Below, one piece after another: positions 14,711 to 36,912 of a stretch of DNA of 64,000 nucleotides. Made by a program: the position numbers and the translations under genes. The stretch spans positions 1,406 to 65,405 of the forward strand of contig JBFWOF010000035.1 of the NCBI GenBank assembly GCA_050250665.1. The letters run 5' to 3'. Source of the stretch: Lysobacterales bacterium. Lineage in GTDB: Bacteria; Pseudomonadota; Gammaproteobacteria; Xanthomonadales; SZUA-5. The notes below the pieces were generated by a model, which was given only the letters and a program-made list of their open reading frames with translations, was not told the DNA's origin and did not search any database. Every line of letters starts with the position of its first letter. Position 1 is the stretch's first letter.

Positions 14711-14726
14711 ATACCCGGGGTGGTAT
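14711..14726. promoter_or_regulatory. Candidate CsoR/RcnR-family operator ATACC-CGGGGT-GGTAT
   Basis: Perfect 5-bp inverted arms around a G/C tract, 50 nt upstream of the YeeE start at 14777. The architecture resembles known TAC(C/T)-G/C-tract-(A/G)GTA sites of this repressor family. A family member is encoded at 26206-26547. Confidence 0.35.
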
Positions 14727-14776
14727 CTGATGCGCTCCGGGTGAACTGCCCATGCACGGCACCTGGGAGGGTGAAC

Positions 14777-15295: not shown

Positions 15296-15852
15296 GCTTT
15301 CCCCTGGGTTACACCGGCGTGATCTCCGGACTGGTCTGCGGCGTGGTCTTTGGGTTCGCCCTCGAGCGCGCCGGGTTTGCCAGCGCCTGCAAACTCACTG
15401 CGCAGCTGCGATTTCGCGACTGGGCGGTATTCAACGTGATGTTCACTGCCATCCTGGTGTGCGCATTCGGGCTCTATTTCCTGCAACTGGCAGGACTGGT
15501 CGCCAGCGACAGCCTGTACGTGCCGACCACTTATCTCTGGGCGACGGCACTGGGCGGAGTCGGTGTGGGCGCCGGCATGGCGATCGGTGGCTACTGTCCG
15601 GGGACCTCGGTGGTCGGCTTCATGTCCGGCAAGATCGATGGTCTGGTGTTCTTCCTCGGCATCGTGCTCGGCACCTGGGTCTTCGCCGGTGCCTATGATG
15701 CCCTCAAGCCCATGCTCGAAGCGGCGCCGGGTCCTGAGGGACAAACCCTGTCGCAACTGCTGCATGTGCCCGATCTGGTGGTGCTGCTGGCGCTGACCGC
15801 AGTGGCGGCAGTGGTCGGCTGGTTCACTGCCCGTCCGAGTGCTCGAACCTGA
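15292..15852 (+). CDS. YeeE/YedE-family transporter, half-protein B (set 1)
   Basis: ATGA overlap with the upstream half and GGAGG 8 nt upstream. Conserved GGYCPGTS loop. Confidence 0.8.
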   Translation: MSFPLGYTGVISGLVCGVVFGFALERAGFASACKLTAQLRFRDWAVFNVMFTAILVCAFGLYFLQLAGLVASDSLYVPTTYLWATALGGVGVGAGMAIGGYCPGTSVVGFMSGKIDGLVFFLGIVLGTWVFAGAYDALKPMLEAAPGPEGQTLSQLLHVPDLVVLLALTAVAAVVGWFTARPSART

Positions 15853-16119: not shown

Positions 16120-16797
16120 ATGAGCGGCAGCGTCCTGATTCCCGAGCCCGCTTCCGGCGAGCGCAGACGTCTGCGCCAGGCCGGGTCGGAACTGCTGGAA
16201 GTGATGCAGACGCTGCAGCAGCGGGGACGCAACGTGATCACCGAATTGCAGGGAGATGGACCGTCGATGACACAGTGGCAGCACTATCCCGATGACGATG
16301 CCACTGATCCCGTGAGCGGTTATCGCTGGTACTACCACGCCCATCCGGAAGCCAGTGCACGGGGGGAGCACGGTCATTTTCATGTCTTCGCCGCTGCTCC
16401 GGCTGGCCGCGGCTACACCCACCTGCTGGGCCTGTCGATGTCGGCCACTGGCTTGCCCCTGCGGGCCTTCACGACCAATCGCTGGGTCACCAATGAGATC
16501 TACCAGCCGGCGGCGCGGGTGCTGAGTCGGGCGCGGCAGTTTGTGATGCGCCAGCCCGCAAAGTGGGCTCTGGTGCATCAATGGCTGGCGGCCACGCTGA
16601 CGCTGTTCGGTCCGCAGATCACCTGGCTGTTGCACGAGCGTGATCGGCGCCTGGCGGCGGCGCAGATCCGTCGAGCTTCCGTGTTTGAAGACCGTCGCAC
16701 CAACCTGCTGTCGCAGTGTCGTCTCGATCTGCAGGCGCAGTTCGAATGGCTGGACGCTGCCGGCCCCCTCAAGATCCGCAATGGAGCAATCCGATGA
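16120..16797 (+). CDS. Conserved hypothetical protein (His-rich core HAHPE...EHGHFHVF)
   Basis: 225-aa ORF in operon position; its stop overlaps the next start as ATGA. I do not recognise a characterised family with confidence. Confidence 0.55.
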   Translation: MSGSVLIPEPASGERRRLRQAGSELLEVMQTLQQRGRNVITELQGDGPSMTQWQHYPDDDATDPVSGYRWYYHAHPEASARGEHGHFHVFAAAPAGRGYTHLLGLSMSATGLPLRAFTTNRWVTNEIYQPAARVLSRARQFVMRQPAKWALVHQWLAATLTLFGPQITWLLHERDRRLAAAQIRRASVFEDRRTNLLSQCRLDLQAQFEWLDAAGPLKIRNGAIR

Positions 16798-17762
16798 AAC
16801 TGCAAGCCGTATTTGTACTGCTGAGCTCGCTGGGTTTCGCAGCGGCCGCCGCTGAATTGCCAGGCCCGGTGGTGTCCGTTGCCTGGCTCAACGAACATCG
16901 CGCGGAAGTGGTGGTTCTGGACGTGCGCAGCGATGTTGCCGGATTCACCACGGCGCCCGAGTGGTCCACCGATGCCAAGACCGGTGCCAATGTGCTCGAC
17001 AGCAGCGGCGGTCATATTGCCGACGCCCGGCTGGTGGACTTCAACCTGTGGCGCGTGAGTGCGGAGGTTGAGGGTCACAAGATCGACAAGCTGATCCCCA
17101 GCGCCGGGGAAGTGCAGACCCTGATGCGCGGGCTCGGGGTCAAGGCTGATGACACGCTGGTCTTGACCACCCCTGGAGCCGATCCCAGCGAGGTCGATAT
17201 GGCCGCCCGTGTGTACTGGACCCTCAAGACCTATGGCGGCAAGCAGATGGCTCTGCTGGATGGCGGCAATGCGGCCTGGTTACAGGCGGGCTACCCGGTA
17301 TCCGTCGATGCGCCTGCGAAACTGGCTGCCGGCGACTGGAGCGCAGCCGATCGCAACAATGCCTGGCTGGCACAGGCCGACGATTTGAAGCCGGGCAAGG
17401 GCGGGCCGCAGCTGATCGACGCCCGTCCGGTGCCGCAGTACCTGGGTGTGGTCTACAAGAAGCCGGCAGTCGCTGCCGGTGGACACGTCGAGGGCGCGGT
17501 GAACTACCCGATCGAACTGCAGACGCGCCCGGCAGGCCTGGCGCAGATGTTCCTGACGTCCGAGCAATATCGCAGCGTCATGAAGGGCCTGGGCTATGTG
17601 CCTCAGGCCGGTGCCATCACCTACTGCAATACCGGGCACATGGCGGCCGGGGCCTGGTTCGTGATGAGCGAGATCATGGGCAACCCCGATACCCGGCTGT
17701 ACGACGGCTCCATGCACGAATGGACCACGCTGGGACGTCCGGTGATAGGCGTGGGTCTCTGA
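16794..17762 (+). CDS. Periplasmic two-domain rhodanese (thiosulfate sulfurtransferase-like)
   Basis: Signal peptide MKLQAVFVLLSSLGFAAAAA. Tandem rhodanese domains, with the catalytic loop YCNTGHMAAG in the second. Confidence 0.8.
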   Translation: MKLQAVFVLLSSLGFAAAAAELPGPVVSVAWLNEHRAEVVVLDVRSDVAGFTTAPEWSTDAKTGANVLDSSGGHIADARLVDFNLWRVSAEVEGHKIDKLIPSAGEVQTLMRGLGVKADDTLVLTTPGADPSEVDMAARVYWTLKTYGGKQMALLDGGNAAWLQAGYPVSVDAPAKLAAGDWSAADRNNAWLAQADDLKPGKGGPQLIDARPVPQYLGVVYKKPAVAAGGHVEGAVNYPIELQTRPAGLAQMFLTSEQYRSVMKGLGYVPQAGAITYCNTGHMAAGAWFVMSEIMGNPDTRLYDGSMHEWTTLGRPVIGVGL

Positions 17763-21372: not shown

Positions 21373-21834
21373 ATGAACATGCACCGCCGTTCCTTCCTGG
21401 CGATGAGTGCCTCGGTCCTCGCCGTGGCCACCACCGCCGCGCTCTGGCCGCTGAGGGCCCTGGCCGAATGGGTGCGACCGCAGGCCGCCTTCGAAGCCAA
21501 GGCACTCGACGCGGTGTACGCCAGTCTCGGCGGCACGCCCGAAGACAGCGATCAGATCACCTTCATGAGCCCGGAGATCGCCGAGAACGGCGCCGTGGTG
21601 CCGGTCAGTGTCACCAGCAAGATTGCCGGCACTGATCAGATCGCCATTCTGGTGGAGATGAATCCGAACCCGCTGGCGGCACTGTTCATGATCCCCGAGG
21701 GCACCGAGCCCGGCGTGTCCACGCGCGTCAAGGTCGCCCAGACCTGCCGCTTGCAGGCGCTAGTCCATGCCGACGGCAAGTGGTACCGCACCTCGCGCGA
21801 GACCAAGGTGACCTTGGGTGGGTGTGGCGGGTGA
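21373..21834 (+). CDS. soxY: Sulfur carrier protein SoxY
   Basis: Tat-type leader MNMHRRSFLAM and the diagnostic C-terminus VTLGGCGG. Confidence 0.95.
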   Translation: MNMHRRSFLAMSASVLAVATTAALWPLRALAEWVRPQAAFEAKALDAVYASLGGTPEDSDQITFMSPEIAENGAVVPVSVTSKIAGTDQIAILVEMNPNPLAALFMIPEGTEPGVSTRVKVAQTCRLQALVHADGKWYRTSRETKVTLGGCGG

Positions 21835-21848
21835 AGCGAGAGCATTTA

Positions 21849-22620
21849 TCCGCAGATGAGAGCAGTGATCCGCAGATGTCACAGATGTACGCAGATGAGA
21901 GCGGGTGAAGAGTTGCGCTGTCGAGTTTGAAATGGCGATGGGGCGTGTGGGGGCAAAGAGCAACCGGTTCGCAGATGGAGGCGGGAAGTGAGCAGCAGAT
22001 CCACCAGGAATATTCAACCAGTCGCTGGGTCACCTACGCGTCAAACGAGCTATGCCTTGCTCTCATCTGCGGACATCTGTGACATCTGCGGAAAATGGCC
22101 TTTTTTACTCGTTGCTGGGTCACTCACGCGTCAAACGAACTATGTCCTTCTCTCATCTGCGGACATCTGTGACATCTGCGGAAACAGGCTTCTAGGGAAC
22201 TGGCAATGAGCGACAGCGAGACCAGGCGGGACGAGCAGACTTACGCTGTGATTGGCGCGGCGATGGCTGTCCATGGCGAGTTGGGGTCCGGATTCCTGGA
22301 GTCGGTCTACCAGGAGGCCTTGGAGTGTGAGTTTGTCGAAAGGGGCATTCCTTACGTTCGCGAGCAAGGTCTGCCGATCTACTACCGCGGCAAGCTGCTG
22401 ATGGCAACGCATCGCGCGGATTTCGTTTGCTACGGCGAAGTCATTGTGGAGTTGAAGGCACTGCAACGCTTGAGCGGAATCGAGTCGGCGCAGGTGATTC
22501 ATTACCTCAAGGCCACCAAGCTCAATCGGGCTTTGCTGCTCAACTTCGGCACGCCAAGGTTGGAGCACAAGCGATTCGTGCTTGATCTGCGCTCATCTGT
22601 GACATCTGCGGAAACAGGCT
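21849..22620 (+). mobile_element. Repeat-bounded cassette carrying a GxxExxY ORF (putative non-autonomous or unclassified mobile insertion; no transposase)
   Basis: The 33-nt motif CTCTCATCTGCGGACATCTGTGACATCTGCGGA occurs forward at 22060-22092 and 22150-22182, where it forms the ends of two 90-bp tandem units. A 38-nt version lies at 22583-22620. An inverted copy with 1 mismatch lies at 21869-21901, and a further half-copy at 21849-21862. GC is lower than in the flanks. Confidence 0.55.
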
Positions 22621-22652
22621 CTTTGGATTTACCAGTTGATCAACAGGAGTAG
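22206..22652 (+). CDS. GxxExxY-family protein (PD-(D/E)XK nuclease-like fold)
   Basis: G-F-L-E-S-V-Y signature at [14 protein letters not shown]-x9-E-L-K motif in [17 protein letters not shown]. The last ~20 codons read through the right-hand repeat, and the stop TAG overlaps the soxZ SD. Confidence 0.75.
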
Positions 22653-22656
22653 AGAC

Positions 22657-22968
22657 ATGGGTAACCCGATGCGCATACGCGCTACCACCACTGACGGTGT
22701 GACCGAGGTCAAGGCCTTGATGTCGCATCCGATGGAAACCGGTTTGCGCAAGGACAGCAGTGGTGTGGCGGTGCCGGCTCATCACATCAAGCAGGTGATT
22801 GCCAAGCACAACGACAAGGTGGTGCTGGCGGCCGAGTGGGGCGCTGCGGTGTCGCAGAACCCCTTCCTGCAGTTCCGCTTCAACGGTGGTGCGGCGGGCG
22901 ACAAGGTCAGCATCGAATGGACCGACAACACCGGAGACAGTCGCAAGGACGAGGTGGTACTCACCTGA
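22657..22968 (+). CDS. soxZ: Sulfur compound chelating protein SoxZ
   Basis: 103 aa (MGNPMRIRATTTDGVTEVKALMSHPMETG...), the typical SoxZ N-terminus and length. AGGAG SD. Confidence 0.9.
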   Translation: MGNPMRIRATTTDGVTEVKALMSHPMETGLRKDSSGVAVPAHHIKQVIAKHNDKVVLAAEWGAAVSQNPFLQFRFNGGAAGDKVSIEWTDNTGDSRKDEVVLT

Positions 22969-26205: not shown

Positions 26206-26547
26206 TCAGGCGTATTTGCTAAGGATGCCAAGCACCTCGGTCATGCGTTCCTGGCGATCGACGCCATCGGCGCTGTCGCCGATTTCGCTTTCCAGCGTGC
26301 ACGCCATCATTTCAAAGAAGGCGCGATCCAGCGCCTTGCGCACCGCCGCCAGCTGCTGCGCGATGTCCTGGCAAGGCTCGTCCTGCTCGATCATCCGCAA
26401 CACACCCCGAATCTGCCCCTCGGCGCGACGCAGCCGCAGCACGACGCCGCGCTTGTGTTCATTGCGGCGTTCGTCGGCATTGTCGACCACGGCGCAGCGC
26501 GCAGGAGCGCGTCGTTTCAGTCTGGAAGTCTTGGGGGCGCTGGGCAT
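26206..26547 (-). CDS. CsoR/RcnR/FrmR-family (DUF156) transcriptional repressor, possibly thiol/persulfide sensing
   Basis: 113 aa from MPSAPKTS. Core LRLRRAEGQIRGVLRMIEQDEPCQDIAQQLAAVRKALDRAFFEMMACTLE. It has Cys residues but no His at the usual copper-ligand positions. Confidence 0.75.
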   Translation of the reverse strand: MPSAPKTSRLKRRAPARCAVVDNADERRNEHKRGVVLRLRRAEGQIRGVLRMIEQDEPCQDIAQQLAAVRKALDRAFFEMMACTLESEIGDSADGVDRQERMTEVLGILSKYA

Positions 26548-26629
26548 GGGGGCGGTCCGGATGCGGATGGCCCGATTTTGCCACAGCGGGTCTCGCGAAT
26601 CCCGGCCACGTTGACCCTGGAGCCGCGCC

Positions 26630-27061
26630 ATGAATGCTGATGCACTCCACCTGGCGCTGGCGGGCGGCCTGATGGTTGGCGCTGCCGCAGCCCTGCTGTA
26701 CTGGCTGAACGGGCGCATCGCCGGTGTCAGCGGCATCTTCGGCGATCTGTTCCTGGAGCGCGACGATGGCCACTGGCCCTGGCGTGCTGCCTTCCTGGCG
26801 GGACTGCTGATCGGCTTTGTGCTGATTCGTTCCCTGCATCCCGAACTGGCCCGGATTCACCTGCAAAGCGGGCCATGGGCCTTGATCGTCGCCGGACTGC
26901 TGGTCGGCTACGGCACGCGCATGAGCAGCGGCTGCACCTCCGGTCACGGCGTTTGTGGAATTGCCCGCATTTCCAGGCGATCGCTGCTGGCCACGGGTTC
27001 TTTCATGTTCGCGGCGATGCTGACAGTGGCCCTGATCCGCCACTCGGGACTCGGTCGATGA
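26630..27061 (+). CDS. Short YeeE/YedE-like membrane protein (set 2, half A)
   Basis: 143 aa with the SSGCTSGHGVCG loop. GGAG 7 nt upstream. Divergent from the CsoR-like gene (82-bp spacer). Confidence 0.75.
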   Translation: MNADALHLALAGGLMVGAAAALLYWLNGRIAGVSGIFGDLFLERDDGHWPWRAAFLAGLLIGFVLIRSLHPELARIHLQSGPWALIVAGLLVGYGTRMSSGCTSGHGVCGIARISRRSLLATGSFMFAAMLTVALIRHSGLGR

Positions 27062-27501
27062 GGCCGGTTTCGGCACTCGCTTGCGGCACCTTGTTCGGTG
27101 CTGGCCTGGCGCTGTCGGGCATGACCGACCCGACGCGGGTGCTGGGCTTTCTGGATGTGCTGGGAGACTGGGATCCGACGCTGCTGGTGGTCATGGCCGG
27201 CGCAGTGCTGGTCAGTTTGCCAGCCTTTCAATGGGCACGGCGACATCCGCGCCCCTTGCTGGATGTCCAGTTCTTCCATCCAGAGCGCACGCGGATCGAT
27301 TCCGATCTGGTGATCGGCTCGTCGGTCTTCGGCATCGGCTGGGGCATTGCCGGGCTTTGCCCCGGCCCCGCGCTCGCCGGCCTGGCGTCGGGGCGCTGGG
27401 AAGTCGCCGTGTTCGTCGCCGCAATGGCGGCGGGTATGGCCCTGCGGAGCTGGCAAGTTCGTCGGCGCGTCGCCGCCGGCGTCTTTCGTTGTCCAGGTTG
27501 A
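27058..27501 (+). CDS. Short YeeE/YedE-like membrane protein (set 2, half B)
   Basis: ATGA overlap with half A. 147 aa with the GIAGLCPGPA loop. Confidence 0.7.
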   Translation: MRPVSALACGTLFGAGLALSGMTDPTRVLGFLDVLGDWDPTLLVVMAGAVLVSLPAFQWARRHPRPLLDVQFFHPERTRIDSDLVIGSSVFGIGWGIAGLCPGPALAGLASGRWEVAVFVAAMAAGMALRSWQVRRRVAAGVFRCPG

Positions 27502-27599
27502 CCTAACACAAGCAGATTCTTGCGGCGCCGGAATAGGCTCTGCAAGAGTCACCACCAGTCGGAGCGCAACGCGTCGCCGGCGCCATGAGGGGGATTTTT

Positions 27600-28946
27600 A
27601 TGTCTAATTCATATACACCCAGGAGTATGTTTGCCCGTGCTTTGCCTGCCGCGATCGTGCTGATTCTGGCTGGGCCGGCTGCCGCCACCAACGGCTATTT
27701 CGCACTCGGCTACGGCACCAAGAGCAAGGGCATGGGTGGCACCGGCGTCTCGATGTCGCTGGATACCCTGGCGCCCGCGACCAATCCGGCCGCCCTCACT
27801 GGCGTCGATGAACAGATCGACCTGGGTATCGCCTATTTCTCGCCGGATCGCGGCTATGACGTCACCGGCGCGGCCACCGGGGCCTGCCTGTCGCCGCAGC
27901 AATGTACTTTTGGCGTGGGCCCGGAATCCCGGCGCAGTGATCGTGACTATTTCCTGATTCCGCACTTCGGCATTGCCCGTAAATGGAGTGACGAGGTCAC
28001 GGTGGGTATTGCGGTCTACGGCAACGGCGGCATGAATACCCGCTACGTCGGTGGCTCGGCCACGGTCGGTGCGCCGATGGGGACTGTACCTCCGGGTACC
28101 GCATTCACCCTGCCGGGTACCTTCGGCTCCGGCACGGCCGGTGTCGATCTGATCCAGTTGTTTGTGGCGCCCACCTACGCCCGTCGTTTCGACAACGGCG
28201 TCAGCATCGGCATCTCGCCGATACTGGCCATGCAGTCCTTCGAAGCACGTGGTCTGGGCAGTTTTGCGCCATTTTCCTCGGCGCCGACCAAGCTGACCAA
28301 TAACGGTCACGACCGCTCCTATGGTCTGGGTCTGAAACTGGGCATCCAGGCACCGATCGGCGAAAGCGCACGGTTCGGCGCTTCCTATCAGACCAAGATG
28401 TCGATGAGCGAATTCGACAGCTACGCCGGACTGTTCGCGGGGCAGGGCGATTTCGACATTCCGGCCTCCGCCACGGTCGGTTTCTCGGTGGCGGCCAGCG
28501 ATGCCTTGACCCTGGCCTTCGATGTCGAGTGGATCGGCTACGGCGGCGTCGATTCCATCGCCAATCCGATCTTTCCGAATCTGCAGCGCGCTCCGCTGGG
28601 CGCCGATGGCGGCGCCGGCTTCGGCTGGAACGACATGACCGTGTACAAGTTCGGCGCTGCCTGGCAAGCCGATGCCCGGAGCACCTGGCGCTTCGGCTAC
28701 AGCTTTGGCGATCAGCCCATCGATTCCAGTGAAGTCCTGTTCAATATCCTGGCGCCGGGCGTGGTCGAACAGCACTTCACCGTGGGCTACACGCGCGAAT
28801 CGGAAGGCGGCAACAGCTGGACGATCGCGGCCATGTATGCGCCGTCCAAATCGGTCAGCGGCATCAATCCGCTGGACCCGGCGCAGAACATCAAGCTGAG
28901 CATGGATCAGTTCGAATTCGAGTTCAGCTACACCTTCGGTAGATGA
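27600..28946 (+). CDS. FadL/TodX/OmpP1-family outer-membrane channel for hydrophobic compounds
   Basis: Signal peptide ...AIVLILAGPAAATNGYF. N-terminal hatch-type block GYGTKSKGMGGTGVS...APATNPAAL. Beta-barrel-like alternating pattern and a terminal aromatic (..FEFSYTFGR). Confidence 0.75.
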   Translation: MSNSYTPRSMFARALPAAIVLILAGPAAATNGYFALGYGTKSKGMGGTGVSMSLDTLAPATNPAALTGVDEQIDLGIAYFSPDRGYDVTGAATGACLSPQQCTFGVGPESRRSDRDYFLIPHFGIARKWSDEVTVGIAVYGNGGMNTRYVGGSATVGAPMGTVPPGTAFTLPGTFGSGTAGVDLIQLFVAPTYARRFDNGVSIGISPILAMQSFEARGLGSFAPFSSAPTKLTNNGHDRSYGLGLKLGIQAPIGESARFGASYQTKMSMSEFDSYAGLFAGQGDFDIPASATVGFSVAASDALTLAFDVEWIGYGGVDSIANPIFPNLQRAPLGADGGAGFGWNDMTVYKFGAAWQADARSTWRFGYSFGDQPIDSSEVLFNILAPGVVEQHFTVGYTRESEGGNSWTIAAMYAPSKSVSGINPLDPAQNIKLSMDQFEFEFSYTFGR

Positions 28947-29014: not shown

Positions 29015-29467
29015 TCAGGGTTTGATGTAGGCGGCGCCTTCGGCAATCTGCAGTCGGGCGATTTCAGCGACGCCGGAAGGCACGATCTGCACGTCTGGCA
29101 ACAGGCTTGCGGCGTCGATGCTTCGGCTTTTCAGGGTGTTGCCGCAGACCCGGAATTCCACGCCTTCCAGCATCAGCGGGTCGACCAGCGCGTCATAGGA
29201 ATTGCCGCGGTCGTCGGCGTGACCATCGAGCAGAAAATCGACGCCAGCGCCCAGGGCGACGACCACGATGTGGATGGTCGGATCGGCCGCATGGTGATTG
29301 TTGATGTTGCGCAGCATCGCAATGGCTTGCTTGCTGTCGTCGAGGTGGTAGACGACCGTGCGCTTCGCTTCGGTGGAGCCTTCGGCAATCAGTCCCGAAC
29401 TGACACACAGCGCCCAGCAGGCAAACAGCAGCATTGCGGGCAAGCGGCGATAGGGGATTGGGAACAT
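29015..29467 (-). CDS. Secreted DsrE/DsrF-like family protein
   Basis: 150 aa with a signal peptide. DsrE-like fold blocks VVYHLDD, IHIVVVALGAGVDFL and FRVCGNTL. Confidence 0.6.
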   Translation of the reverse strand: MFPIPYRRLPAMLLFACWALCVSSGLIAEGSTEAKRTVVYHLDDSKQAIAMLRNINNHHAADPTIHIVVVALGAGVDFLLDGHADDRGNSYDALVDPLMLEGVEFRVCGNTLKSRSIDAASLLPDVQIVPSGVAEIARLQIAEGAAYIKP

Positions 29468-29601
29468 TCGGGCGAGCTCCTGAGGGCTGCTGAGGGCTGC
29501 GGAAGGGCGCGTCGGCCAGTCTGCCGACGCAGTGTACCGAAGGCGCCCGGGATTGAACTTGACCGGGCGCGGCGGAAAGTCGTGCGGACTTTGATATGCA
29601 T

Positions 29602-29620
29602 CATGGCTAAATTAGCTATG
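29602..29620. promoter_or_regulatory. AT-rich near-palindrome CATGGCTAAATTAGCTATG in the DsrE-like / octaheme cytochrome divergent promoter region
   Basis: 8 of 9 positions pair. It lies in the only low-GC stretch between the two divergent genes. The core GCTAAATTAG also occurs, inverted, at 14532-14541. Confidence 0.25.
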
Positions 29621-29718
29621 GTGCGTATAAAGAGTCATGAAGGAGCCGTGGAAATTGCTGGCGCGAGTTCCACGGGTCTGCCTGGCCCGCGGCCATCGAC
29701 CGATTTCGGAGCATTGCG

Positions 29719-31170
29719 ATGAAGATGCGCTTTCCAGCCTGGCTGATCGGTCTGATCGTCATCGCCTTGCTGATCGTCCTGCCGACACTCTACTTCCTGC
29801 CCTCGGCAGAGCAGACCCAACTGCCAGCCGCCGGAATTCCCGAGCGCGCGGTGCACGTGGATCACGCCGACATCGTCAAGGGCGATTTCAAGAGCGGGCA
29901 GGAGGTGACACGCGCTTGCCTGGTGTGCCACGAGGACGCGGCGGCCGAACTGATGCGCACCAGCCACTGGACCTGGGAGTCAAAGCCCTACAACGTGCCC
30001 TGGCGCGAAGGCGCCGTGACCATTGGCAAGATCAACCAGATCAACAACTTCTGCATCGGCACCCAGGGCAACGAGAACAAGTGCATGAGTTGCCACGCCG
30101 GCTATGGCTGGGAAGCCGGCCGCGCCGCCCAGCAGGCCAATCCGGAAAATGTCGATTGTCTGGCCTGCCACGCCGACCCCGGCATCTATGGCAAAGGCCT
30201 GTTCGGCAACCCCGCAGAGGGCGTCGACCTGCTGGCTGCCGCCCGAAGTGTGCGTGCCACGACCCGTGAGAACTGCGGCAAATGCCATTTCGATGGCGGC
30301 GGCGGCAACGGCGTGAAGCATGGCGATCTGGACGAGAGCATGTACTTCCCGAGCCAGTCGCTGGATGTGCACATGGGTGGCGAGCACAACCTGCAGTGCA
30401 GCGATTGCCATGTCACCAGGGCGCACCAGATTCTCGGTCGAATCATCGCTGACAACTACACCATCGAGCCTGCCGAGCAGGTCTCATGCACCCAGTGCCA
30501 TACGGGCAAGATCCACAAGGACGAGCGCATCGGCACCCATCTGGCGGCAGTGGCCTGCCAGACCTGCCATATTCCGGCGATCGCGCGGGAAGAGCCGACC
30601 AAGGTGACCTGGGACTGGTCCAAGGCCGCCGATGCCAGCCGCGCCGAGGATCACTACAGCTATCTCAAGATCAAGGGCGAATTCACTTATGAGTCGAATT
30701 TTGCCCCCAGCTATCTGTGGTTCAACGGCAACAACGAGTACCGCTATCTGCTCGGCGACAAGATCAATCCGGACGGTCCCACCTACATCAACAAGCCGGC
30801 CGGCAGCATCAACGATGCCAGGGCGAAGATCTTCCCCTTCAAGCTGCACAAGGCCAGGCAGCCCTACGACAAGGTGCATCAGTACCTGCTGCAGCCGGTG
30901 ACCTCGGGCAAGGACGGATTCTGGACGAACTTCGACTGGAACCAGGCCTTCGAACTGGCGGTGCCGATTACCGGACTGGCCTACAGCGGTGAGTACGATT
31001 TCACCGAGACCTACATGTACTGGGCCACCACCCACATGGTGCAGCCGGCGCGCGATGCCTTGCAGTGCGAAGCCTGCCACTCGGCCACGGGCAAGCCCGG
31101 TCGGCTCGACTGGGAGGCCCTGGGATATCCCGGTGATCCCATCGAATGGGGCGGGAGGAAGCTGCCATGA
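29719..31170 (+). CDS. Octaheme c-type cytochrome, tetrathionate-reductase (OTR) family
   Basis: N-terminal anchor/signal and eight CxxCH motifs (CLVCH, CMSCH, CLACH, CGKCH, CSDCH, CTQCH, CQTCH, CEACH) in 483 aa. Size and spacing match the Shewanella OTR type as I remember it. Confidence 0.8.
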   Translation: MKMRFPAWLIGLIVIALLIVLPTLYFLPSAEQTQLPAAGIPERAVHVDHADIVKGDFKSGQEVTRACLVCHEDAAAELMRTSHWTWESKPYNVPWREGAVTIGKINQINNFCIGTQGNENKCMSCHAGYGWEAGRAAQQANPENVDCLACHADPGIYGKGLFGNPAEGVDLLAAARSVRATTRENCGKCHFDGGGGNGVKHGDLDESMYFPSQSLDVHMGGEHNLQCSDCHVTRAHQILGRIIADNYTIEPAEQVSCTQCHTGKIHKDERIGTHLAAVACQTCHIPAIAREEPTKVTWDWSKAADASRAEDHYSYLKIKGEFTYESNFAPSYLWFNGNNEYRYLLGDKINPDGPTYINKPAGSINDARAKIFPFKLHKARQPYDKVHQYLLQPVTSGKDGFWTNFDWNQAFELAVPITGLAYSGEYDFTETYMYWATTHMVQPARDALQCEACHSATGKPGRLDWEALGYPGDPIEWGGRKLP

Positions 31171-33848
31171 AGCACCACTTTCAGGCGATTGTCCTCCTGT
31201 GCTGCGCGCTCGTCGCGCCAGCCAGCACGCAGGCTGCCGATGGCCCCGGCGCCAATCGACTGCACCCCGACTTTGTCGTGCTGGATGCCAATGGCGTCAA
31301 TGTGCTGGACAGCGGCGCATCCCTGTCGACCATGAAGACCTGCGGTCAATGCCATGACACCGACTACATCGAGAGTCATGCCTTTCATGCCGATCTCGGC
31401 TTGAAGTCTTTCGCCGCCAACGCTGCATCCTGGGACTCCAGCCCCGGGCTGTTCGGGCGTTGGGATCCGCTGAGTTACCGATATCTGAGTCGCAGCGGCG
31501 ACGAGCGTCTGGATCTGTCCACGCCCGAATGGCTGATGCAGCTGGGTGAGCGCGTGGTCGGTGGCGGCCCCGCCATGCGGTCGCGCGCCGGGGCGGCACT
31601 GCCTGACCTGCCACCGGATGGCGCCAACCCGGAGAGCACGCTGCTGGGAGACTCCGGCGAGGTCACACCGTGGGACTGGGCAGCCTCGGGTGGCATGGAG
31701 ATGAACTGCTTCCTCTGCCATCTGGAGCAGCCCAATGTCAGCGCCCGCGCCGAGGCGCTGCACCAGGGCCAGTTTGCGCGCGCCAACACGGCCACCTTGT
31801 CGGGCTTGAACATCGTCGAGGCAGCCGGACAGGCCTGGGCCTGGAACCCGGCAGCCTTCAACGATCAGCGTGAGCTGCAGAGCAAGCTGGTGAACATCCA
31901 GGATCCGACCAACGCCAACTGCGCCGCCTGCCATGGCGAGGTGCACCCGGCCACGGACGAGCCCCTGACCATCAGCGCCTGCGATCTCGACTATCCGCAA
32001 ACAGCCACCACCGGTCAGGTGATTGCCTCGCAGCGCATCAATGCCTCGGGGGTGAATCTGGCCGGCAAGGCGGAGCTGCACCGCTCCTGGGATATCCATG
32101 CCGAGCGCCAACTGCAATGCACCGATTGCCATCACGCACTGAACAACCCGGCGCACCTGAGCCAGACCCAGGGCAACAATCCTGCCCATCTGCGCTACGA
32201 CCCGCGCTCGCTGGAGATCAACGAGTACCTGCGTCGGCCCGATCACAACTTTGCTCGTGGCCAGAGTGCCCAGTTCAATCTGGCACCCGAATACAAGGGC
32301 ACGATGCGCCGCTGCGAGAACTGCCACGACGCGGCTACCAGCCATCAGGCCTGGCTGCCCTATGTCGAAACCCATATGGCAGCGATGGCCTGCGAGACCT
32401 GTCACATTCCCAGGCTGCATGCGCCGGCCATCCAGAGCTATGACTGGACCCTGATCCGCACCGACGGCGCTGCGATCAGCAGCTGTAGAGGTGTCGAAGG
32501 TCCTCCGGGCGATGTCAGATCGCTGGTGACCGGCTACCAGCCGGTGCTGCTCCAGCGCCGCAACATCGATGGTCAGACTCTGCTGGCGCCGTACAACCTG
32601 ATCACCAGTTTCTACTGGGTATACCGGGACAGCGGCGGACAGCAGCGACCGGTGCGACTGATCGACCTGAAGCGGGCCATGCTGAAGGACGGTGCCCACG
32701 CGCCCGAGATCGTCGCCGCCTTCGATACGGACGGCGATGGCCGTCTGAGCGACACCGAACTGGTGATCGTCACGCCCGAACAGCAGCATTTGCTGCAAGC
32801 CAGGCTGAGTGCGCTGGGGCTTGTCGATGTGCACATCGAGGGGCGCGTGCAGCCCTACAGCATCAACCACAATGTCGTCCGCGGCGAAAATGCGCTGAAC
32901 GACTGCCGCGCCTGCCACAACCAGGGTTCCAGGCTGACGCAGTCCATGCGTCTGGCGGATCACGCGCCGGTGCTGCCGGAATTCGTCGCCACCACCAATG
33001 TCAGCGGCAGCGGCGAGATGATCCGCGATCAGGCCGGAGCGCTGATCTATCAACCGCAGCCCGCACAGGATGGGCTGTACATCTTTGGCGCCAGCCGCAA
33101 CAGCTGGATGGACCGTCTGGGGGCCCTGGCCTTTGCCGGCACCCTGTTCGGTGTCTTCGCTCACGGCAGCCTGCGTTACCTGGCGTGGCGGCGACGGCCG
33201 CATGGCGTGGAACACACCCGACGCGTGCGTATGTACGACGCCTATCGCCGCTTCTGGCATTGGCTGCAGGCCACCAGCATCCTGGTGTTGCTGATGACTG
33301 GCCTGATCATCCATCGGCCGGACATCTTCAGCGCTTTTTCCTTCCGCGGCGTGATCACTCTGCACAATGTGCTGGCGGTGATTCTGGTGGTCAACGCGGT
33401 GTTCTCGCTGTTCTATCACCTGGCGACCGAGCGCATGCGCGAATACATCCCGCGTCCGCACGGCTTCTTTGACGATTCCATTGCCCAGACCAGGTACTAC
33501 CTGTCCGGCATCTTCAAGGGCGAACCGCATCCCTTCGAGAAGAGCCCGGACGATCGCATGAACCCGATCCAGAAGCTGACCTACTTCGGCATCCTGAATG
33601 TGCTGTTGCCGCTGCAGATATTGACGGGCGTGCTGATCTGGGGCGTGCAGCGCTGGCCGGAGTTGGCCGGCAGCCTGGGCGGCTTGCCGCTGCTGGGGTC
33701 GGTGCACTCACTGGTGGCCTGGCTGTTTGCCAGTTTCATTGTTGGCCATGTGTATCTGACCACCACCGGCGCGACGCCGCTGGAGGGCATCCGCGGCATG
33801 GTGACCGGTTACGAGGAAGTCGAGGATCACCCCGGGAAATCGCAGTGA
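31167..33848 (+). CDS. Fusion protein: periplasmic heptaheme cytochrome c + C-terminal membrane cytochrome b (PhsC / Ni-hydrogenase-b type)
   Basis: ATGA overlap with the OTR gene and GGGAGGA SD. Signal peptide MKHHFQAIVLLCCALVAPASTQA. Seven CxxCH motifs (CGQCH, CFLCH, CAACH, CTDCH, CENCH, CETCH, CRACH). DTDGDGRLSD loop. The C-terminal ~250 aa carry multiple TM helices with conserved His (RFWHWLQ, TLHNV, SVHSL, VGHVY). Confidence 0.8.
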   Translation: MKHHFQAIVLLCCALVAPASTQAADGPGANRLHPDFVVLDANGVNVLDSGASLSTMKTCGQCHDTDYIESHAFHADLGLKSFAANAASWDSSPGLFGRWDPLSYRYLSRSGDERLDLSTPEWLMQLGERVVGGGPAMRSRAGAALPDLPPDGANPESTLLGDSGEVTPWDWAASGGMEMNCFLCHLEQPNVSARAEALHQGQFARANTATLSGLNIVEAAGQAWAWNPAAFNDQRELQSKLVNIQDPTNANCAACHGEVHPATDEPLTISACDLDYPQTATTGQVIASQRINASGVNLAGKAELHRSWDIHAERQLQCTDCHHALNNPAHLSQTQGNNPAHLRYDPRSLEINEYLRRPDHNFARGQSAQFNLAPEYKGTMRRCENCHDAATSHQAWLPYVETHMAAMACETCHIPRLHAPAIQSYDWTLIRTDGAAISSCRGVEGPPGDVRSLVTGYQPVLLQRRNIDGQTLLAPYNLITSFYWVYRDSGGQQRPVRLIDLKRAMLKDGAHAPEIVAAFDTDGDGRLSDTELVIVTPEQQHLLQARLSALGLVDVHIEGRVQPYSINHNVVRGENALNDCRACHNQGSRLTQSMRLADHAPVLPEFVATTNVSGSGEMIRDQAGALIYQPQPAQDGLYIFGASRNSWMDRLGALAFAGTLFGVFAHGSLRYLAWRRRPHGVEHTRRVRMYDAYRRFWHWLQATSILVLLMTGLIIHRPDIFSAFSFRGVITLHNVLAVILVVNAVFSLFYHLATERMREYIPRPHGFFDDSIAQTRYYLSGIFKGEPHPFEKSPDDRMNPIQKLTYFGILNVLLPLQILTGVLIWGVQRWPELAGSLGGLPLLGSVHSLVAWLFASFIVGHVYLTTTGATPLEGIRGMVTGYEEVEDHPGKSQ

Positions 33849-33917
33849 TGAAGCGAGGAATACGGCCCCGGCTGTGGCGAAAGCGGCAGTCCCGGGCAAT
33901 CAACGAGGAGTAGCGTG

Positions 33918-34463
33918 ATGGCGATGAGATTCATCCAGGCGGTCTTCAAGCGGCAGGAAAAGCCCTATGTGCATCCCTATCTGGCTGGTGCCATCCTGGG
34001 TGTCGTGCTGTTTCTGGCTTTTCTGCTGACTGGCAACGGACTCGGCTCATCGGGGGCCACCAGCCGCATCGATGCGGCCCTGGTCGACATGGTGGCGCCC
34101 GCCCACGTCGACAACAATCCCTATCTGCTGAAAATGGCCGGAGGCGACAAGAACCCGCTGGACGACTGGATCGTGCCGGTGTTCCTGGGCGCCTTGCTCG
34201 GTGGCTTCAGCTCCGGCGCGCTGAATGGACGCCTGCGCCTGACCACGACCAAGGGCCCGAACATCTCCAACGGCATGCGCTGGCTGATGTCATTTCTGGG
34301 CGGCGTGATCTTCCTCTACGGCGCCCGTATGGCCCGCGGCTGTACCTCGGGGCAGGCACTGTCCGGCGGCGCCACGCTGGCTGCCGGCTCGTGGGTGATC
34401 ATGTTTTCGATCTTTGCCGGCGCCTACGCGCTGGCCTATTTCGTGCGCCGTCTGTGGCTGTAG
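33918..34463 (+). CDS. YeeE/YedE-family transporter half-protein A (set 3)
   Basis: GAGGAG 7 nt upstream. Conserved ARGCTSGQALSG loop. Confidence 0.8.
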   Translation: MAMRFIQAVFKRQEKPYVHPYLAGAILGVVLFLAFLLTGNGLGSSGATSRIDAALVDMVAPAHVDNNPYLLKMAGGDKNPLDDWIVPVFLGALLGGFSSGALNGRLRLTTTKGPNISNGMRWLMSFLGGVIFLYGARMARGCTSGQALSGGATLAAGSWVIMFSIFAGAYALAYFVRRLWL

Positions 34464-34493
34464 CGCGGCTACGCAACGATTGAGGAGAAGGTC

Positions 34494-35795
34494 ATGCATT
34501 TTCCACTGGAAGCATTCGGCGCCGTCAGCGCCAGCAATCCGTGGACCTATCTGGTGTTCGGCGCCATCGGCTATGCCTTCGGGTTCACGCTGGAGATGGC
34601 GGGATTCGGCGATTCCCGAAAACTCGCCGGCCAGTTCTATTTCCGGGAACTGACGGTCTTCAAGGTCATGTTCACGGCCATCGCGGTGGCCATGGTCCTG
34701 ATCTGGGGGGCGGTGGGACTGGGGTGGCTGGATTTCAGCCAGGTCTGGGTCAATCCCACCTATCTGGGATCGGGCATCGTGGGCGGACTGATCATGGGGG
34801 TCGGCTTCATCGTCGGCGGCTTCTGCCCAACCACCTCGCTGGCCTCGGCATCCACCGGCAAGATCGATGGCATGTTCTTCATGCTAGGCGGCTTCGTCGG
34901 TGCCTTCCTGTTTGCCGAGACCCAGGGCTCCTACGACCACTGGTACAACCACGCCGGCTATTACGGGCGGCTGACCCTGGATCAGGTGTTCGGCATTCCG
35001 GCACCGGTGATCGTGCTGATCGTGGTCTGCGCGGCGCTGTTCTTCTTCTGGGGTAGCGAGCGCGTCGAGCACGCGGTTGCCGGCAAGAACCTGGCTGCAG
35101 AACCGGGTATCCGCAAGTTCGGCGCTGCAGGTCTGTTGGCGGCGGCGCTGATGGTGCTGCTGATCGGCAGTCCGACACTGGACGATCGCTACCAGAAACT
35201 CAGCTTCCAGCGTACCGAAACCATCGAGCAGGAGAACGCCGAAGCGCTGACCTCGACCCGGGTCTACAGCGCCGACGAAATGCTGGCGAAGCGCCTGGTG
35301 TTCACCTCGCCAGCCGAAGCCTTCAAGGCCCGCTACAACCAGGCGGTCAAACCGATCTTCCTGGATGTGCGCCGGGAATCCGACTACAACCTCTACCACA
35401 TCGCCGATTCCATCAGCGCGCCGCTGGAGAGCCTGGCCGGGCGCGTGCCCGAGCTACTGGCCGAGCCGCCCGGAAATACGGTCATCGTGACCATCAGCAA
35501 CGACGAGTCCGCGGCCGTCGCCGCCTGGAAGCTGCTGGTGGCATCGGGCGTGCCCAATGTCTACGTGCTCGAGGGCGGTATCAATCGCTGGATCGCGTTT
35601 TTCGGCAAGGAGGACAGCCTGTTGCAGCCGCTGGTCGATGCTGCCGATGACGAACTCGGCTACGCCTTCAAGGCCGCGCTCGGCAGTCGCTATCCCTCCT
35701 GCGCGCCTGACCCGATAGCACACGAACGTCTGGAGTTCGATCCGCGCATCGTGCTGCAGCTCAAACGCGACAAGTCCGGTGGTGGCTGCGGGTAG
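34494..35795 (+). CDS. YeeE/YedE half-protein B fused to a rhodanese-like domain lacking the catalytic Cys, ending in GGGCG
   Basis: GAGGAG SD. N-terminal membrane part with GGFCPTTS. C-terminal rhodanese homology (IFLDVRRESDYNLYHIADSI ... VTISNDESAAVAAWKLL ... LEGGINRW) with Ser where the active-site Cys normally sits. Last residues KRDKSGGGCG. Confidence 0.8.
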   Translation: MHFPLEAFGAVSASNPWTYLVFGAIGYAFGFTLEMAGFGDSRKLAGQFYFRELTVFKVMFTAIAVAMVLIWGAVGLGWLDFSQVWVNPTYLGSGIVGGLIMGVGFIVGGFCPTTSLASASTGKIDGMFFMLGGFVGAFLFAETQGSYDHWYNHAGYYGRLTLDQVFGIPAPVIVLIVVCAALFFFWGSERVEHAVAGKNLAAEPGIRKFGAAGLLAAALMVLLIGSPTLDDRYQKLSFQRTETIEQENAEALTSTRVYSADEMLAKRLVFTSPAEAFKARYNQAVKPIFLDVRRESDYNLYHIADSISAPLESLAGRVPELLAEPPGNTVIVTISNDESAAVAAWKLLVASGVPNVYVLEGGINRWIAFFGKEDSLLQPLVDAADDELGYAFKAALGSRYPSCAPDPIAHERLEFDPRIVLQLKRDKSGGGCG

Positions 35796-35951
35796 AGCTG
35801 GTGTCGGTGGTGGGTGTCGGTGCCGGATGAGAGTTCCGATCGCCCCTGGCGGCGCGCTGGTTCGCGGATCAAACAAGGGGCAGGGGGCAGGGGGCAGGGT
35901 ACCCATCTCGCCGCCCGGTCAGAACGATGTGGTGGGCTCGGAGCGAATTTG

Positions 35952-36368
35952 AGGAGGGCCGCGCGCCTGCGCGGCCGCTCTTGATCTCCGGGCATTGAAA
36001 AGCGGCGCCGCAGCGCGGCGCCCTCCACATCGACCGCCCGCAATCCCGCGCCCTCTCGCGTACATGTGATTCATGGAGAGCCGCTTGTATAGGCCCGACA
36101 CTTGGCGCGACTCGCGTTACTTCTCGCCCACTAGCGGACGGGAGCTCCAACGCGGAGAACGCCGAGAACCGCAGAGAACACAGAGAGAACCCCGTACGAA
36201 ACTGCTTTGCTTCTCTCCGCGTGCTCTCTGCTTTTCCTTCGCGTTCTCTGCGTCCAGCTTCTGATGTCAACCCGCTCAGGTTCTGGATTATCGCGGGTAA
36301 CATTCGTGACGCGAGGTCAATCCAGGTAAACACTGCCAGCCGTTGGGCACGCTGCGCTTAGCCCAACC
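35952..36368. repeat. BIME-like REP cluster, including the inverted copy of the 12574-12710 composite
   Basis: 35952-36028 is the reverse complement of 12634-12710, with both arms near-identical. 9-mer arrays (TTCTCYGCG-like) lie in opposite orientations at 36151-36190 and 36211-36253. TTGGGCACGCTGCGCTTAGCCCAAC hairpin at 36344-36368. Confidence 0.85.
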
Positions 36369-36912
36369 TACCATTCAAGGTCCGTGCGCAGGGTGGGGCC
36401 GATGTCAGGGCCATGGCGTACTGGCACAGCTCGTCATCCTCGGGTTTCACCCGATAGCGCTGCTCCAGTTGCATGCCCAGCTGCTCCAGCAGATGTCTGG
36501 AGCGGATGTTTTCGGGCGAGGTGATGGCCAGCAGCCGGGTCATCCCGAATTGCTCGCGTGCCATTTTCACGCAGGCGCGGGCGGCTTCCAGCGCGTAGCC
36601 AACGCCGGCATATTGGGGCAGCAAGGCGTAGCCGAGGTCCGGCTCGGGCAGGGTCTCGCGCTGGAGCAGGCCGCAGAGGCCGATCAACTGTTGGTCGACC
36701 TTGCGCTCGATGGCGTAGAGCCCGAATCCGTAGCGTTGGTACATCTCGAGCGGACCTTTGCGCAGATATTCCTGGGCATCGGCCAGCGTGCGCACGCCGC
36801 GATCGCCGATGCCCGCCAGCCAGGTCGGATCATTGACCAGCTTGAAGATGAATTCGGCATCGGCCAGTTCCAGCCGCCGCAGGATCAAGCGATGGGTTTC
36901 GGCTACAGGCAT
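36358..36912 (-). CDS. GNAT-family N-acetyltransferase (RimJ/RimL-like)
   Basis: 184 aa: HRLILRRLELADAEFIFKLVNDP ... GYALLPQYAGVGYALEAARA. Confidence 0.75.
   Translation of the reverse strand: MPVAETHRLILRRLELADAEFIFKLVNDPTWLAGIGDRGVRTLADAQEYLRKGPLEMYQRYGFGLYAIERKVDQQLIGLCGLLQRETLPEPDLGYALLPQYAGVGYALEAARACVKMAREQFGMTRLLAITSPENIRSRHLLEQLGMQLEQRYRVKPEDDELCQYAMALTSAPPCARTLNGRLG

Follow-up and report, generated by a model that had tools for sequence, protein, structure and literature searches.

Introduction

In the crystal structure of YeeE the N-terminus lies outside and the C-terminus inside; four transmembrane (TM) helices and two short re-entrant ones make up H1-H6, and after H7, which turns the topology round, H8-H13 follow the same layout as H1-H6 (PMC7449682). 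Thiosulfate bound in the outer vestibule sits beside Cys293 (PMC7449682), and at the inner mouth, according to a summary passage in PMC13047784, thiosulfate is bound by the conserved Cys of YeeD. A split version of the channel is also known, in which the short proteins PmpB and PmpA match the N half and the C half of YeeE (PMC11582611). The same study names the membrane crossing of sulfur after periplasmic processing as an unsolved step in sulfur oxidisers (PMC11582611). Here we analyse a 64,000-nucleotide (nt) stretch of DNA from a Lysobacterales bacterium (assembly GCA_050250665.1, contig JBFWOF010000035.1; 'the window' throughout), in which a protein of 433 amino acids (aa) joins one half of a YeeE-type channel to a rhodanese-fold domain and a C-terminal Cys arm, beside genes for the octahaem cytochrome c Otr and a second multihaem protein.

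Sud from Wolinella is a periplasmic rhodanese-fold polysulfide-sulfur transferase that holds sulfur on a Cys and serves polysulfide reductase. DsrC/TusE proteins carry sulfur on the next-to-last residue, a Cys, of a flexible C-terminal arm. For Otr, the crystal structure reportedly dates from 2004. A 2026 study describes its physiological function as never established (PMC12949373). In lucinid symbionts otr is followed immediately downstream by a divergent soxY/soxZ pair (PMC11237559). For Beggiatoa, the genes reported downstream of otr include one for a cytochrome b (PMC6449678), and in an Acidobacteriota metagenome-assembled genome (MAG) from sediment otr was induced 36-fold by tetrathionate (PMC8528874).

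Our preferred reading of the locus, to which we give a probability of about 0.55, is that the arm of the 433-aa protein is a covalent sulfur carrier of the SoxY/Sud kind, linking a quinone-connected Otr module and a split YeeE channel. Each component is of a known kind; the combination, and an arm tethered to a channel at the outer membrane face, appear new. Neither the fusion nor the arm nor the cassette was described in the literature we searched, which was thin on subscription journals, and database entries label the relatives only 'YeeE/YedE family protein' or 'rhodanese-related sulfurtransferase'.

Comparison with described systems

Four genes and the segments of the 433-aa protein are referred to throughout. 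Segment boundaries are predicted from the evidence in brackets.

29719-31170, plus strand: Otr-type octahaem cytochrome c, 483 aa, with eight CxxCH motifs and an N-terminal hydrophobic anchor or signal
31146-33848, plus strand: heptahaem cytochrome c-cytochrome b fusion, a 900-aa open reading frame (ORF) with seven CxxCH motifs and a signal peptide
33915/33918-34463, plus strand: PmpA-like half, 182 aa from GTG or 181 aa from ATG
34494-35795, plus strand: 433-aa protein, with the ribosome-binding site GAGGAGAAGG upstream
34494-35081, plus strand: residues 1-196 of the 433-aa protein, PmpB-like half equivalent to YeeE H1-H7 (Sulf_transp positions 11-170; AlphaFold2 (AF2) helices)
35109-35165, plus strand: residues 206-224, extra (sixth) TM helix (family-averaged hydropathy, basic preceding loop, AF2)
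35202-35603, plus strand: residues 237-370, beta-hairpin and rhodanese-fold domain (Pfam, PDB profile matches, Foldseek)
35604-35753, plus strand: residues 371-420, ordered C-terminal extension on the rhodanese domain (block-mean predicted local distance difference test (pLDDT) 93-96)
35754-35795, plus strand: residues 421-433 and the TAG stop, flexible basic arm LQLKRDKSGGGCG (low pLDDT, conservation)

The arm resembles SoxY in its flexible Gly-Gly-Cys-Gly(-Gly) end (GGGCG here, GGCGG in the SoxY encoded in the window), its predicted periplasmic location and its association with c-type cytochromes that act on S-S bonds. It differs in standing on a rhodanese scaffold, with neither the Ig-like SoxY fold nor a SoxZ partner, in being tethered to a membrane channel where SoxY is soluble, and in its linkage to Otr and a cytochrome b instead of SoxXA/SoxB. 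Sud offers a periplasmic rhodanese-fold carrier that feeds a respiratory reductase, but it is soluble, uses the canonical loop Cys and serves a molybdoenzyme; here the Cys is C-terminal, the loop is Cys-less and the enzyme is a multihaem cytochrome. DsrC/TusE is cytoplasmic and differs further in its unrelated fold, the second Cys of its arm and its partners DsrAB/DsrMK.

As for the channel, the locus resembles PmpAB of Serratia (PMC11582611) in having adjacent genes that encode one half and one conserved Cys each, with a heterodimer predicted. Unlike PmpB, the PmpB-like half here has an H7-like helix, a sixth helix, a rhodanese domain and the arm, and the pair belongs to a cytochrome operon. 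The thiosulfate uptake system YeeE/TsuA with YeeD/TsuB (PDB 6LEO) has the same channel fold, relay cysteines and a Cys-bearing partner at one mouth. However, the channel here is split into what are predicted to be antiparallel subunits, and it has no Cys22 equivalent; the partner is fused, predicted at the outer mouth and rhodanese-folded, whereas YeeD serves the inner mouth with a TusA fold.

The Otr of the cassette is about 48% identical to that of Shewanella oneidensis (1SP3) and has its eight haems and its active-site Lys and Cys. The Shewanella protein is described as soluble and thought to be fed by CymA, whereas the cassette provides Otr with its own heptahaem-cytochrome b partner and a channel with an arm. 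In the one near-identical metagenomic locus examined (L088, Otr 93% identical to 1SP3) no cassette gene lies within about 7 kb.

The two channel-half genes

Both ORFs are present as the original prediction described them, and Pfam matches bear out its reading of the 433-aa protein as a YeeE half plus a rhodanese domain. G+C content at third codon positions is 0.82-0.83 in the two genes, a value typical for real genes in a window of 64% G+C. For the upstream gene, the ATG start at 33918 is the choice of gene callers in a 97%-identical relative. No identical protein to the exact 433-aa window sequence is on record; the reference for genomic context was a 97%-identical protein from MAG assembly GCA_022841325.1.

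The Pfam Sulf_transp profile matches the 182-aa protein over profile positions 168-309 (E=2.5e-19) and residues 45-208 of the 433-aa protein over positions 11-170 (E=4.8e-15; 56 bits against a cut-off of 27). The Pfam Rhodanese profile matches residues 277-368 of the latter (E=2.1e-12). By their profile positions, the 433-aa protein, encoded second, is best assigned as the homologue of the YeeE N-terminal half (PmpB-like) and the 182-aa protein as the C-terminal half (PmpA-like). The original prediction had taken the 433-aa protein for the second half of YeeE; it is the N half that it matches, and the gene order is reversed. The NCBIfam models for TsuA and YedE/FdhT score 20-29 bits against cut-offs of 330-645, far too low, which places the pair in the superfamily and outside both characterised equivalogs. 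None of the curated NCBIfam models reaches its cut-off, and the generic Sulf_transp and Rhodanese domains are all that Pfam recognises. The layout is that of a PmpAB-type split, with adjacent N-half and C-half genes bearing one conserved Cys each (adjacent in 82 of 88 surveyed loci), and not that of a single-polypeptide YeeE with nine TM and four short helices (H1-H13), because the fold is divided over two genes.

The relay cysteines are conserved in both halves. In the 433-aa protein the loop GGFCPTTS lies at 34815-34838, with Cys111 at 34824-34826; the family form of this loop is GG(F/Y)CP(G/T)TS, in which Cys111, Pro112 and Thr114 are invariant. In the PmpA-like half Cys143 (34341-34343) falls within the motif ARxARGCTSGQ and is kept in 83 of 84 copies, the nearby Arg141 in all 84. 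Cys111 corresponds to the essential StYeeE relay residue Cys91, and Cys143 of the partner to Cys293. The non-essential StYeeE Cys22 has no equivalent in the 433-aa protein, whose LA loop reads LEMAGFG. Another cysteine, Cys403, is invariant in an alignment of relatives at 70% identity or more and is not conserved in the wider family.

The terminal cysteine arm

The 433-aa protein ends K-R-D-K-S-G-G-G-C-G at 35763-35792, with Cys432 at 35787-35789 and the TAG stop at 35793-35795. The ending given by the original prediction is right, but its range of 35766-35795 takes in the stop codon and misses the first Lys. All of the 120 best database matches (68-97% identity) end in SGGGCG. We then searched 1.84 billion cluster representatives, which yielded 2093 relatives at E<=1e-3 and 198 at E<=1e-30. 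From these, 92 full-length representatives of 365-460 aa and 28-49% identity form a distant set, and 84 of them have a Cys among the last four residues. Their endings are GGCG (40), GGC (21), EGC (7), GGCS (4), GGCGG (3) and a few others, and several of the eight exceptions without the tail seem frameshifted. A GGC-type end is likewise present in all 88 loci surveyed for gene neighbourhood, which span at least six phyla.

In an alignment of 97 sequences reaching down to 27% identity, only ten positions never vary, Cys432 among them, and Gly431 is kept in at least 90%. The residues preceding the GGC motif are variable and rich in Lys and Arg. Since all homologues terminate at the same motif, the stop is genuine; a sequencing error, which the original prediction had allowed for, does not account for the ending. 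The arm is a feature that defines the family and not a local oddity, and the terminal Cys holds in the homologue survey that had been suggested as a check.

AF2 confidence falls off along the tail: residues 421-430 have a mean pLDDT of about 60 and the last six (428-433) lie below 50. The only other stretch of low confidence is the first 12 residues. Low confidence together with a conserved Cys is the profile that would be expected of a flexible arm. The likeness to SoxY pointed out in the original prediction also stands, in that the SoxY of the window (21373-21834) ends VTLGGCGG. In sequence the arm motif resembles this GGCGG arm, though homology of the two arms cannot be shown; a Pfam scan up to E 1 gave no match of the SoxY profile (PF13501) to the 433-aa protein, as against E=1e-28 for the SoxY of the window.

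The rhodanese domain

Foldseek searches with the AF2 model return rhodanese structures for all top matches, at probability 1.00. The best PDB relatives by family profile include 6mxv and Alr3790, the latter with the loop YGAGDEQT. In the 433-aa protein the loop T-I-S-N-D-E-S is encoded at 35490-35510. A catalytic rhodanese has a Cys at the start of a six-residue loop, and there is none here. The original prediction described a Cys-to-Ser change. The absence of Cys is correct, but the profile alignment pairs the active-site Cys of 6mxv (YLYCGSGFRSA) with Ile334, the neighbour of Ser335 in VTISNDES, which leaves the column uncertain by one residue. Across 85 diverse full-length relatives with the tail, the five loop columns hold V/Y/I/M, S/G/D/A, N/D/E, D/G/S and E/G/D, and Cys occurs in none of the 85. 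In a second alignment three of 86 tailed proteins have a loop Cys.

We considered that the tail Cys might be a swap for the loop Cys, the two being mutually exclusive, and rejected this: relatives without the tail also have no loop Cys, and three of 86 tailed proteins keep one. These tail-less proteins form a sister group that includes P0194 (687 aa), P0210 (700 aa), P0240 (542 aa), P0233, P0257 and P0262. Their loop is YS-NG(T/M)THAA, and some have added C-terminal domains ending in WxDW.

Membrane topology

The AF2 model of the 433-aa protein was built from the 97-sequence alignment (pLDDT 90, predicted template-modelling score 0.83). It replaced a model from 20 sequences at 70% identity or more, which was unusable (pLDDT 50). 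The predicted helices are H1 (16-35), the short H2 (41-49), H3 (54-76), H4 (91-108), the short H5 (112-120), which begins just past Cys111, the long H6 (124-153), H7 (170-196) and the extra helix (206-224). We counted Lys plus Arg per loop and averaged the counts over 85 relatives:

N-terminus: predicted outside, mean 0.2
LA loop: predicted inside, mean 2.1
H3-H4 loop: predicted outside, mean 0.5
LB loop: predicted inside, mean 0.9
H6-H7 loop: predicted outside, mean 1.25, net charge -1.9
Loop before the last helix: predicted inside, mean 4.7

The PmpA-like partner has the complementary pattern and is predicted to be N-in/C-in, as H8-H13. Residues 1-190 of the 433-aa protein, covering H1-H7, are 37% identical to a short paralogue in the window (15286-15852), which terminates directly after H7 with a basic end.

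Natural split versions bear on the same point. In four metagenomic cassettes, as a case of natural gene fission, the H1-H7 half and the anchor-rhodanese-arm part are encoded by separate adjacent genes:

L144, 11575-12812
L152, 8859-10093
L153, 190-4990
L155, 9419-10689

The separate rhodanese-arm protein is about 208 aa long. It starts with a signal-anchor (for example MKIQHFLTIIAVVAGAGLLVV or MKIQHFLTIIAVVAGAGLLVVKQP) and ends in KSGGCG.

The rhodanese domain and the arm are therefore predicted to lie on the outer (periplasmic) membrane face, since YeeE homology, the positive-inside rule and the signal-anchor of the split versions concur. Both the family profile (E up to 1) and Foldseek matched only rhodanese entries in the PDB and no YeeE structure, so the topology argument consists of Pfam homology and the published YeeE topology, with no structural superposition. 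The original prediction had cast the arm as a stand-in for TusA/YeeD, the acceptor in the cytoplasm. With an N-out start, H1-H7 and one further helix are predicted to put the arm outside instead, and outside the cytoplasm the 433-aa protein would be no substitute for TusA/YeeD. The broader idea of a built-in sulfur carrier is reasonable nonetheless, given the split YeeE, the Cys-less loop, the conserved flexible arm and a window without TusA/YeeD; what lacks support is the cytoplasmic acceptor role.

A conserved cassette with Otr

Upstream of the channel genes lie two multihaem cytochrome genes on the same strand. The product of 29719-31170 matches Shewanella Otr (PDB 1sp3) over residues 49-476 with a phmmer E-value of 5.2e-128 and the Pfam Cytochrome_cB profile with E=7e-57. 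Its Lys104 and unpaired Cys112 are the counterparts of Lys56 and Cys64 in the 1sp3 chain; 61 of 62 cassette copies keep both residues. Lys56 of 1sp3 is reportedly the haem-2 ligand (Mowat et al. 2004).

The second gene encodes the heptahaem-cytochrome b fusion, called as 892 aa in a close relative (L001). Its Ni_hydr_CYTB match covers residues 697-888 (E=2.3e-25), and this dihaem-type cytochrome b is presumed to link the haem chain to the quinone pool. The heptahaem domain aligns with Otr over about 300 residues (BLASTP E=4e-8) and with 1sp3 at E=3e-7. It is a distant Otr paralogue, so the electron wire seems to have been born from a duplication of the enzyme gene.

Genes 1 and 2 of the cassette overlap by 25 nt, and the later gaps are 69 and 30 nt. 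The operon assignment follows from these short gaps and overlaps together with the conserved gene order. A promoter and terminator scan of 29300-36400 gave counts near chance and is uninformative on operon structure.

To see how far the cassette extends, we surveyed 88 loci, including some from Chloroflexota, Pseudomonadota, Acidobacteriota, Gemmatimonadota, Myxococcota and Planctomycetota, by clustering neighbouring ORFs. Gene order and strand are identical among them, and the partners occur as follows:

PmpA-like half: directly upstream in 82 of 88 loci
Protein of about 914 aa (haem domain and cytochrome b): 74 of 88 loci
Otr: 62 of 88 loci

Upstream sequence of at least 5.6 kb is available for 58 loci; all three partners occur in 55 of these and the heptahaem-cytochrome b gene in 57. 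In one of the split cassettes (L153) Otr and the heptahaem protein are fused in a single 1007-aa ORF. Across the 88 loci there are no conserved genes downstream of the 433-aa gene and no conserved cluster of TusA-like genes. These comparisons establish the domain architecture, conservation and gene linkage of the 433-aa protein.

In a one-genome-per-species scan, whose pattern left out the window's own CPT-loop clade, relatives of the 433-aa protein turned up in at least 596 genomes. The best 80 of these are mostly Chloroflexota, with Lysobacterales, Acidobacteriota, Gemmatimonadota, Myxococcota, Planctomycetota and Spirochaetes also represented; MAGs assigned to Caldilinea and to Lysobacterales are among the best matches. 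We also started from Otr, with an alignment led by the Shewanella sequence and 18 metagenomic loci that have at least 5.5 kb downstream. The cassette is present in 11 of the 18, with the arm intact in 10 of these 11.

Proposed mechanism

The original prediction missed the context of Otr and the haem wire, which shifts the likeliest function of the arm to that of a carrier between the channel, at its outer mouth, and a redox enzyme in the periplasm. In the scheme we propose, the PmpB-like half of the 433-aa protein (N-out) and the 182-aa PmpA-like half (N-in) would form an antiparallel, two-piece YeeE-type channel. The extra TM helix would take the chain back outside, where the Cys-less rhodanese fold would form. 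This dead domain would act as scaffold and docking module, and a flexible, Lys/Arg-rich tail of about ten residues, ending Gly-Gly-Cys-Gly, would jut from it. Cys432 would take up a sulfur species as a persulfide, polysulfide or S-thiosulfonate adduct, and the arm could offer the adduct to the open catalytic haem pocket of Otr (Lys104, Cys112). There, two-electron reduction of an S-S bond, or its formation in reverse, would be coupled through the haem wire to quinol/quinone. The arm might also swing to the outer channel mouth at Cys143, from which the sulfur species would cross the membrane.

Covalent carriage by Cys432, the partnership with Otr and the direction of flow are what we infer. Carriage is proposed because the arm, Otr and the heptahaem domain are all predicted to lie outside, because Cys143 corresponds to Cys293, and because the design is that of SoxY and DsrC, with Sud as a precedent. 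The direction we favour would run from quinol through Otr to an arm-bound adduct derived from tetrathionate or polysulfide, the product being taken up by the channel. The tetrathionate/thiosulfate couple is given as +198 mV (as cited in PMC8528874). Judged by redox potential, a tetrathionate-type S-S bond is a favoured acceptor for electrons from quinol, and the reductive direction is preferred for this reason. The arm could also be loaded oxidatively, in the manner of SoxXA. A more ambitious version holds that the four proteins are a new respiratory-transport machine. In it, the substrate of Otr would be the Cys-arm adduct and no free anion, and quinol-driven S-S cleavage at the outer face, or S-S formation in reverse, would be coupled mechanically to the translocation of sulfur groups through the split YeeE; we put it forward tentatively, as possible but not probable.

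Several points weigh against the carrier reading. Seven of the 18 loci found through Otr, the Shewanella type included, are without the cassette, so the arm is no universal requirement of Otr; no convincing SoxY/SoxZ homologue or GGC-ended ORF was found beside Otr in these cassette-less loci. In purified form Otr turns over nitrite and hydroxylamine better than tetrathionate (PMC12949373), and deletion of otr in Shewanella gave no tetrathionate phenotype (PMC12949373). The outer vestibule of YeeE is positively charged (PMC7449682), which, with a basic arm linker, argues against simple electrostatic docking. Tail-less relatives (loop YS-NGTTHAA) likewise have no rhodanese-loop Cys, so the catalytic Cys has not simply moved to the tail. 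The topology of the 433-aa protein is a prediction, and the direction of electron flow and the substrate are guesses.

Alternative explanations

The alternative that survives best, though we consider it unlikely, is that Cys432 acts as a redox gate or sensor, where a reversible disulfide or trisulfide with Cys143 or with Cys112 of Otr would open and close the channel in response to the redox or sulfur state of the periplasm. A regulatory role is common among inactive rhodanese domains, and Cys432 and Cys143 are both invariant and on the same predicted face. The cysteines of YeeE are able to form disulfides (PMC7449682). However, the known carriers SoxY and DsrC are built in this way, with a scaffold and a Gly-rich terminal arm, and obligate linkage to a quinone-connected 15-haem wire exceeds what a gate would need. 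The independent linkage of otr with soxYZ also points to carriage.

Somewhat less probable again is a cassette that handles selenite, tellurite, nitrite or hydroxylamine, the arm binding Se as a selenotrisulfide for reduction and uptake or being incidental to an N-oxide reductase. In vitro, nitrite and hydroxylamine are good substrates of Otr (PMC12949373), and the rhodanese-like protein ExtH is reportedly linked to selenite handling in Geobacter (PMC5877670). Two models, one for the YedE/FdhT selenium protein and one for a rhodanese-related (seleno)protein, also give weak NCBIfam matches, but their scores are far under the cut-offs. The cassette itself lies within a sulfur island (sox genes, DsrE, PmpAB and a CsoR-like repressor), and a YeeE-type channel with relay cysteines has no obvious role in nitrite reduction.

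We think it improbable that the arm is a cytoplasmic, built-in replacement for TusA/YeeD to which the channel, at its inner mouth, would pass thiosulfate or sulfane sulfur. The original prediction was right that the window encodes no TusA/YeeD: a motif scan of the 64 kb found no CPxP protein, and the best tblastn hit has an E-value of about 1. This absence speaks for a replacement, as do the basic linker, which suits the cytoplasm, and the existence of natural YeeE-YeeD fusions and of a known inner-mouth Cys acceptor (PMC11073785). Against it, there are six TM helices after the N-out start, not five or seven, and the loop ahead of the last of them is the most basic (Lys plus Arg 4.7). Stand-alone rhodanese-arm proteins start with a signal-anchor, and the conserved partners, Otr and the heptahaem domain, are all extracytoplasmic.

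Least probable by our estimate is that the arm Cys serves Otr as a removable distal haem ligand or as an assembly or protection factor, the channel half being a mere anchor: Cys-ligated haems are typical of the sulfur-active cytochromes SoxA, TsdA and MccSep (PMC13510729) and the anchor-rhodanese-arm module is found apart from the channel half in split cassettes, but nearly all cassettes keep both channel halves with their relay cysteines, and Shewanella-type Otr functions without such an arm.

Significance

The cassette ties Otr to a quinone-linked haem wire, a sulfur channel and a SoxY-like arm in at least six phyla, and it yields the testable hypothesis that the substrate of Otr is a carrier-bound sulfur adduct. 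The more ambitious version, if true, would account for the weak activity on free tetrathionate and the absent deletion phenotype in the species studied, and it would make the arm a third type of swinging-arm sulfur carrier, after SoxY and DsrC. Work on YeeE so far concerns cytoplasmic TusA/YeeD-type partners only, to which the arm would add an outer-face partner, and periplasmic sulfur redox chemistry may couple directly to transmembrane sulfur transfer. The family is large (2093 clusters, at least 596 species-level genomes) and abundant in Chloroflexota of sediment and sludge, and it may matter for the cycling of sulfur intermediates.

Neighbouring genes in the window

Just upstream of otr and divergent from it, a gene at 29018-29467 (minus strand) encodes a DsrE-family protein of 150 aa with a signal-peptide-like N-terminus (MFPIPYRRLPAMLLFACWALCVSSGLIAEG). 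An export signal, if that is what this N-terminus is, would be unusual on a DsrE-family protein. The gene is conserved only in close relatives (L001-L003).

Further upstream, a CsoR/CstR-like repressor gene (26209-26550, minus strand) is divergent from a short PmpA/PmpB pair (26630-27061 and 27081-27506), which is followed by a FadL/TodX-type outer-membrane channel (27585-28946). The region 26209-28946 may serve the uptake of hydrophobic or zero-valent sulfur under persulfide control. The upstream DsrE, FadL-like porin and PmpAB/CsoR genes are conserved in close relatives only.

The window has a third split-YeeE set, with a PmpA-like gene at 14720-15295 and a PmpB-like gene at 15286-15852; the latter has H7 and is without a rhodanese domain or arm. 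A DUF6969 protein (16120-16797) follows this set. The double rhodanese encoded at 16716-17762 has a signal peptide and an intact active-site Cys (YCNTGHMAA). In the sox region, a gene for a PDDEXK_3 nuclease-family protein (22206-22652, plus strand; E=9.5e-37) lies between soxY (21373-21834) and soxZ (22636-22968). This gene separates soxY and soxZ, which usually adjoin, and has a slight overlap with the start of soxZ.

Downstream of the 433-aa gene and convergent with it is an acetyltransferase gene (36358-36912, minus strand). The 560-nt intergenic region between them (35796-36357) holds short tandem repeats: four copies of GGTGTC (35800-35826), three of GGGGCAG (35877-35899) and four of AACGCAGAG (36149-36186). 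On the minus strand, a strong GC hairpin with a T run behind it (36022-36004) is in the position of a terminator, although 336 nt beyond the end of the acetyltransferase gene.

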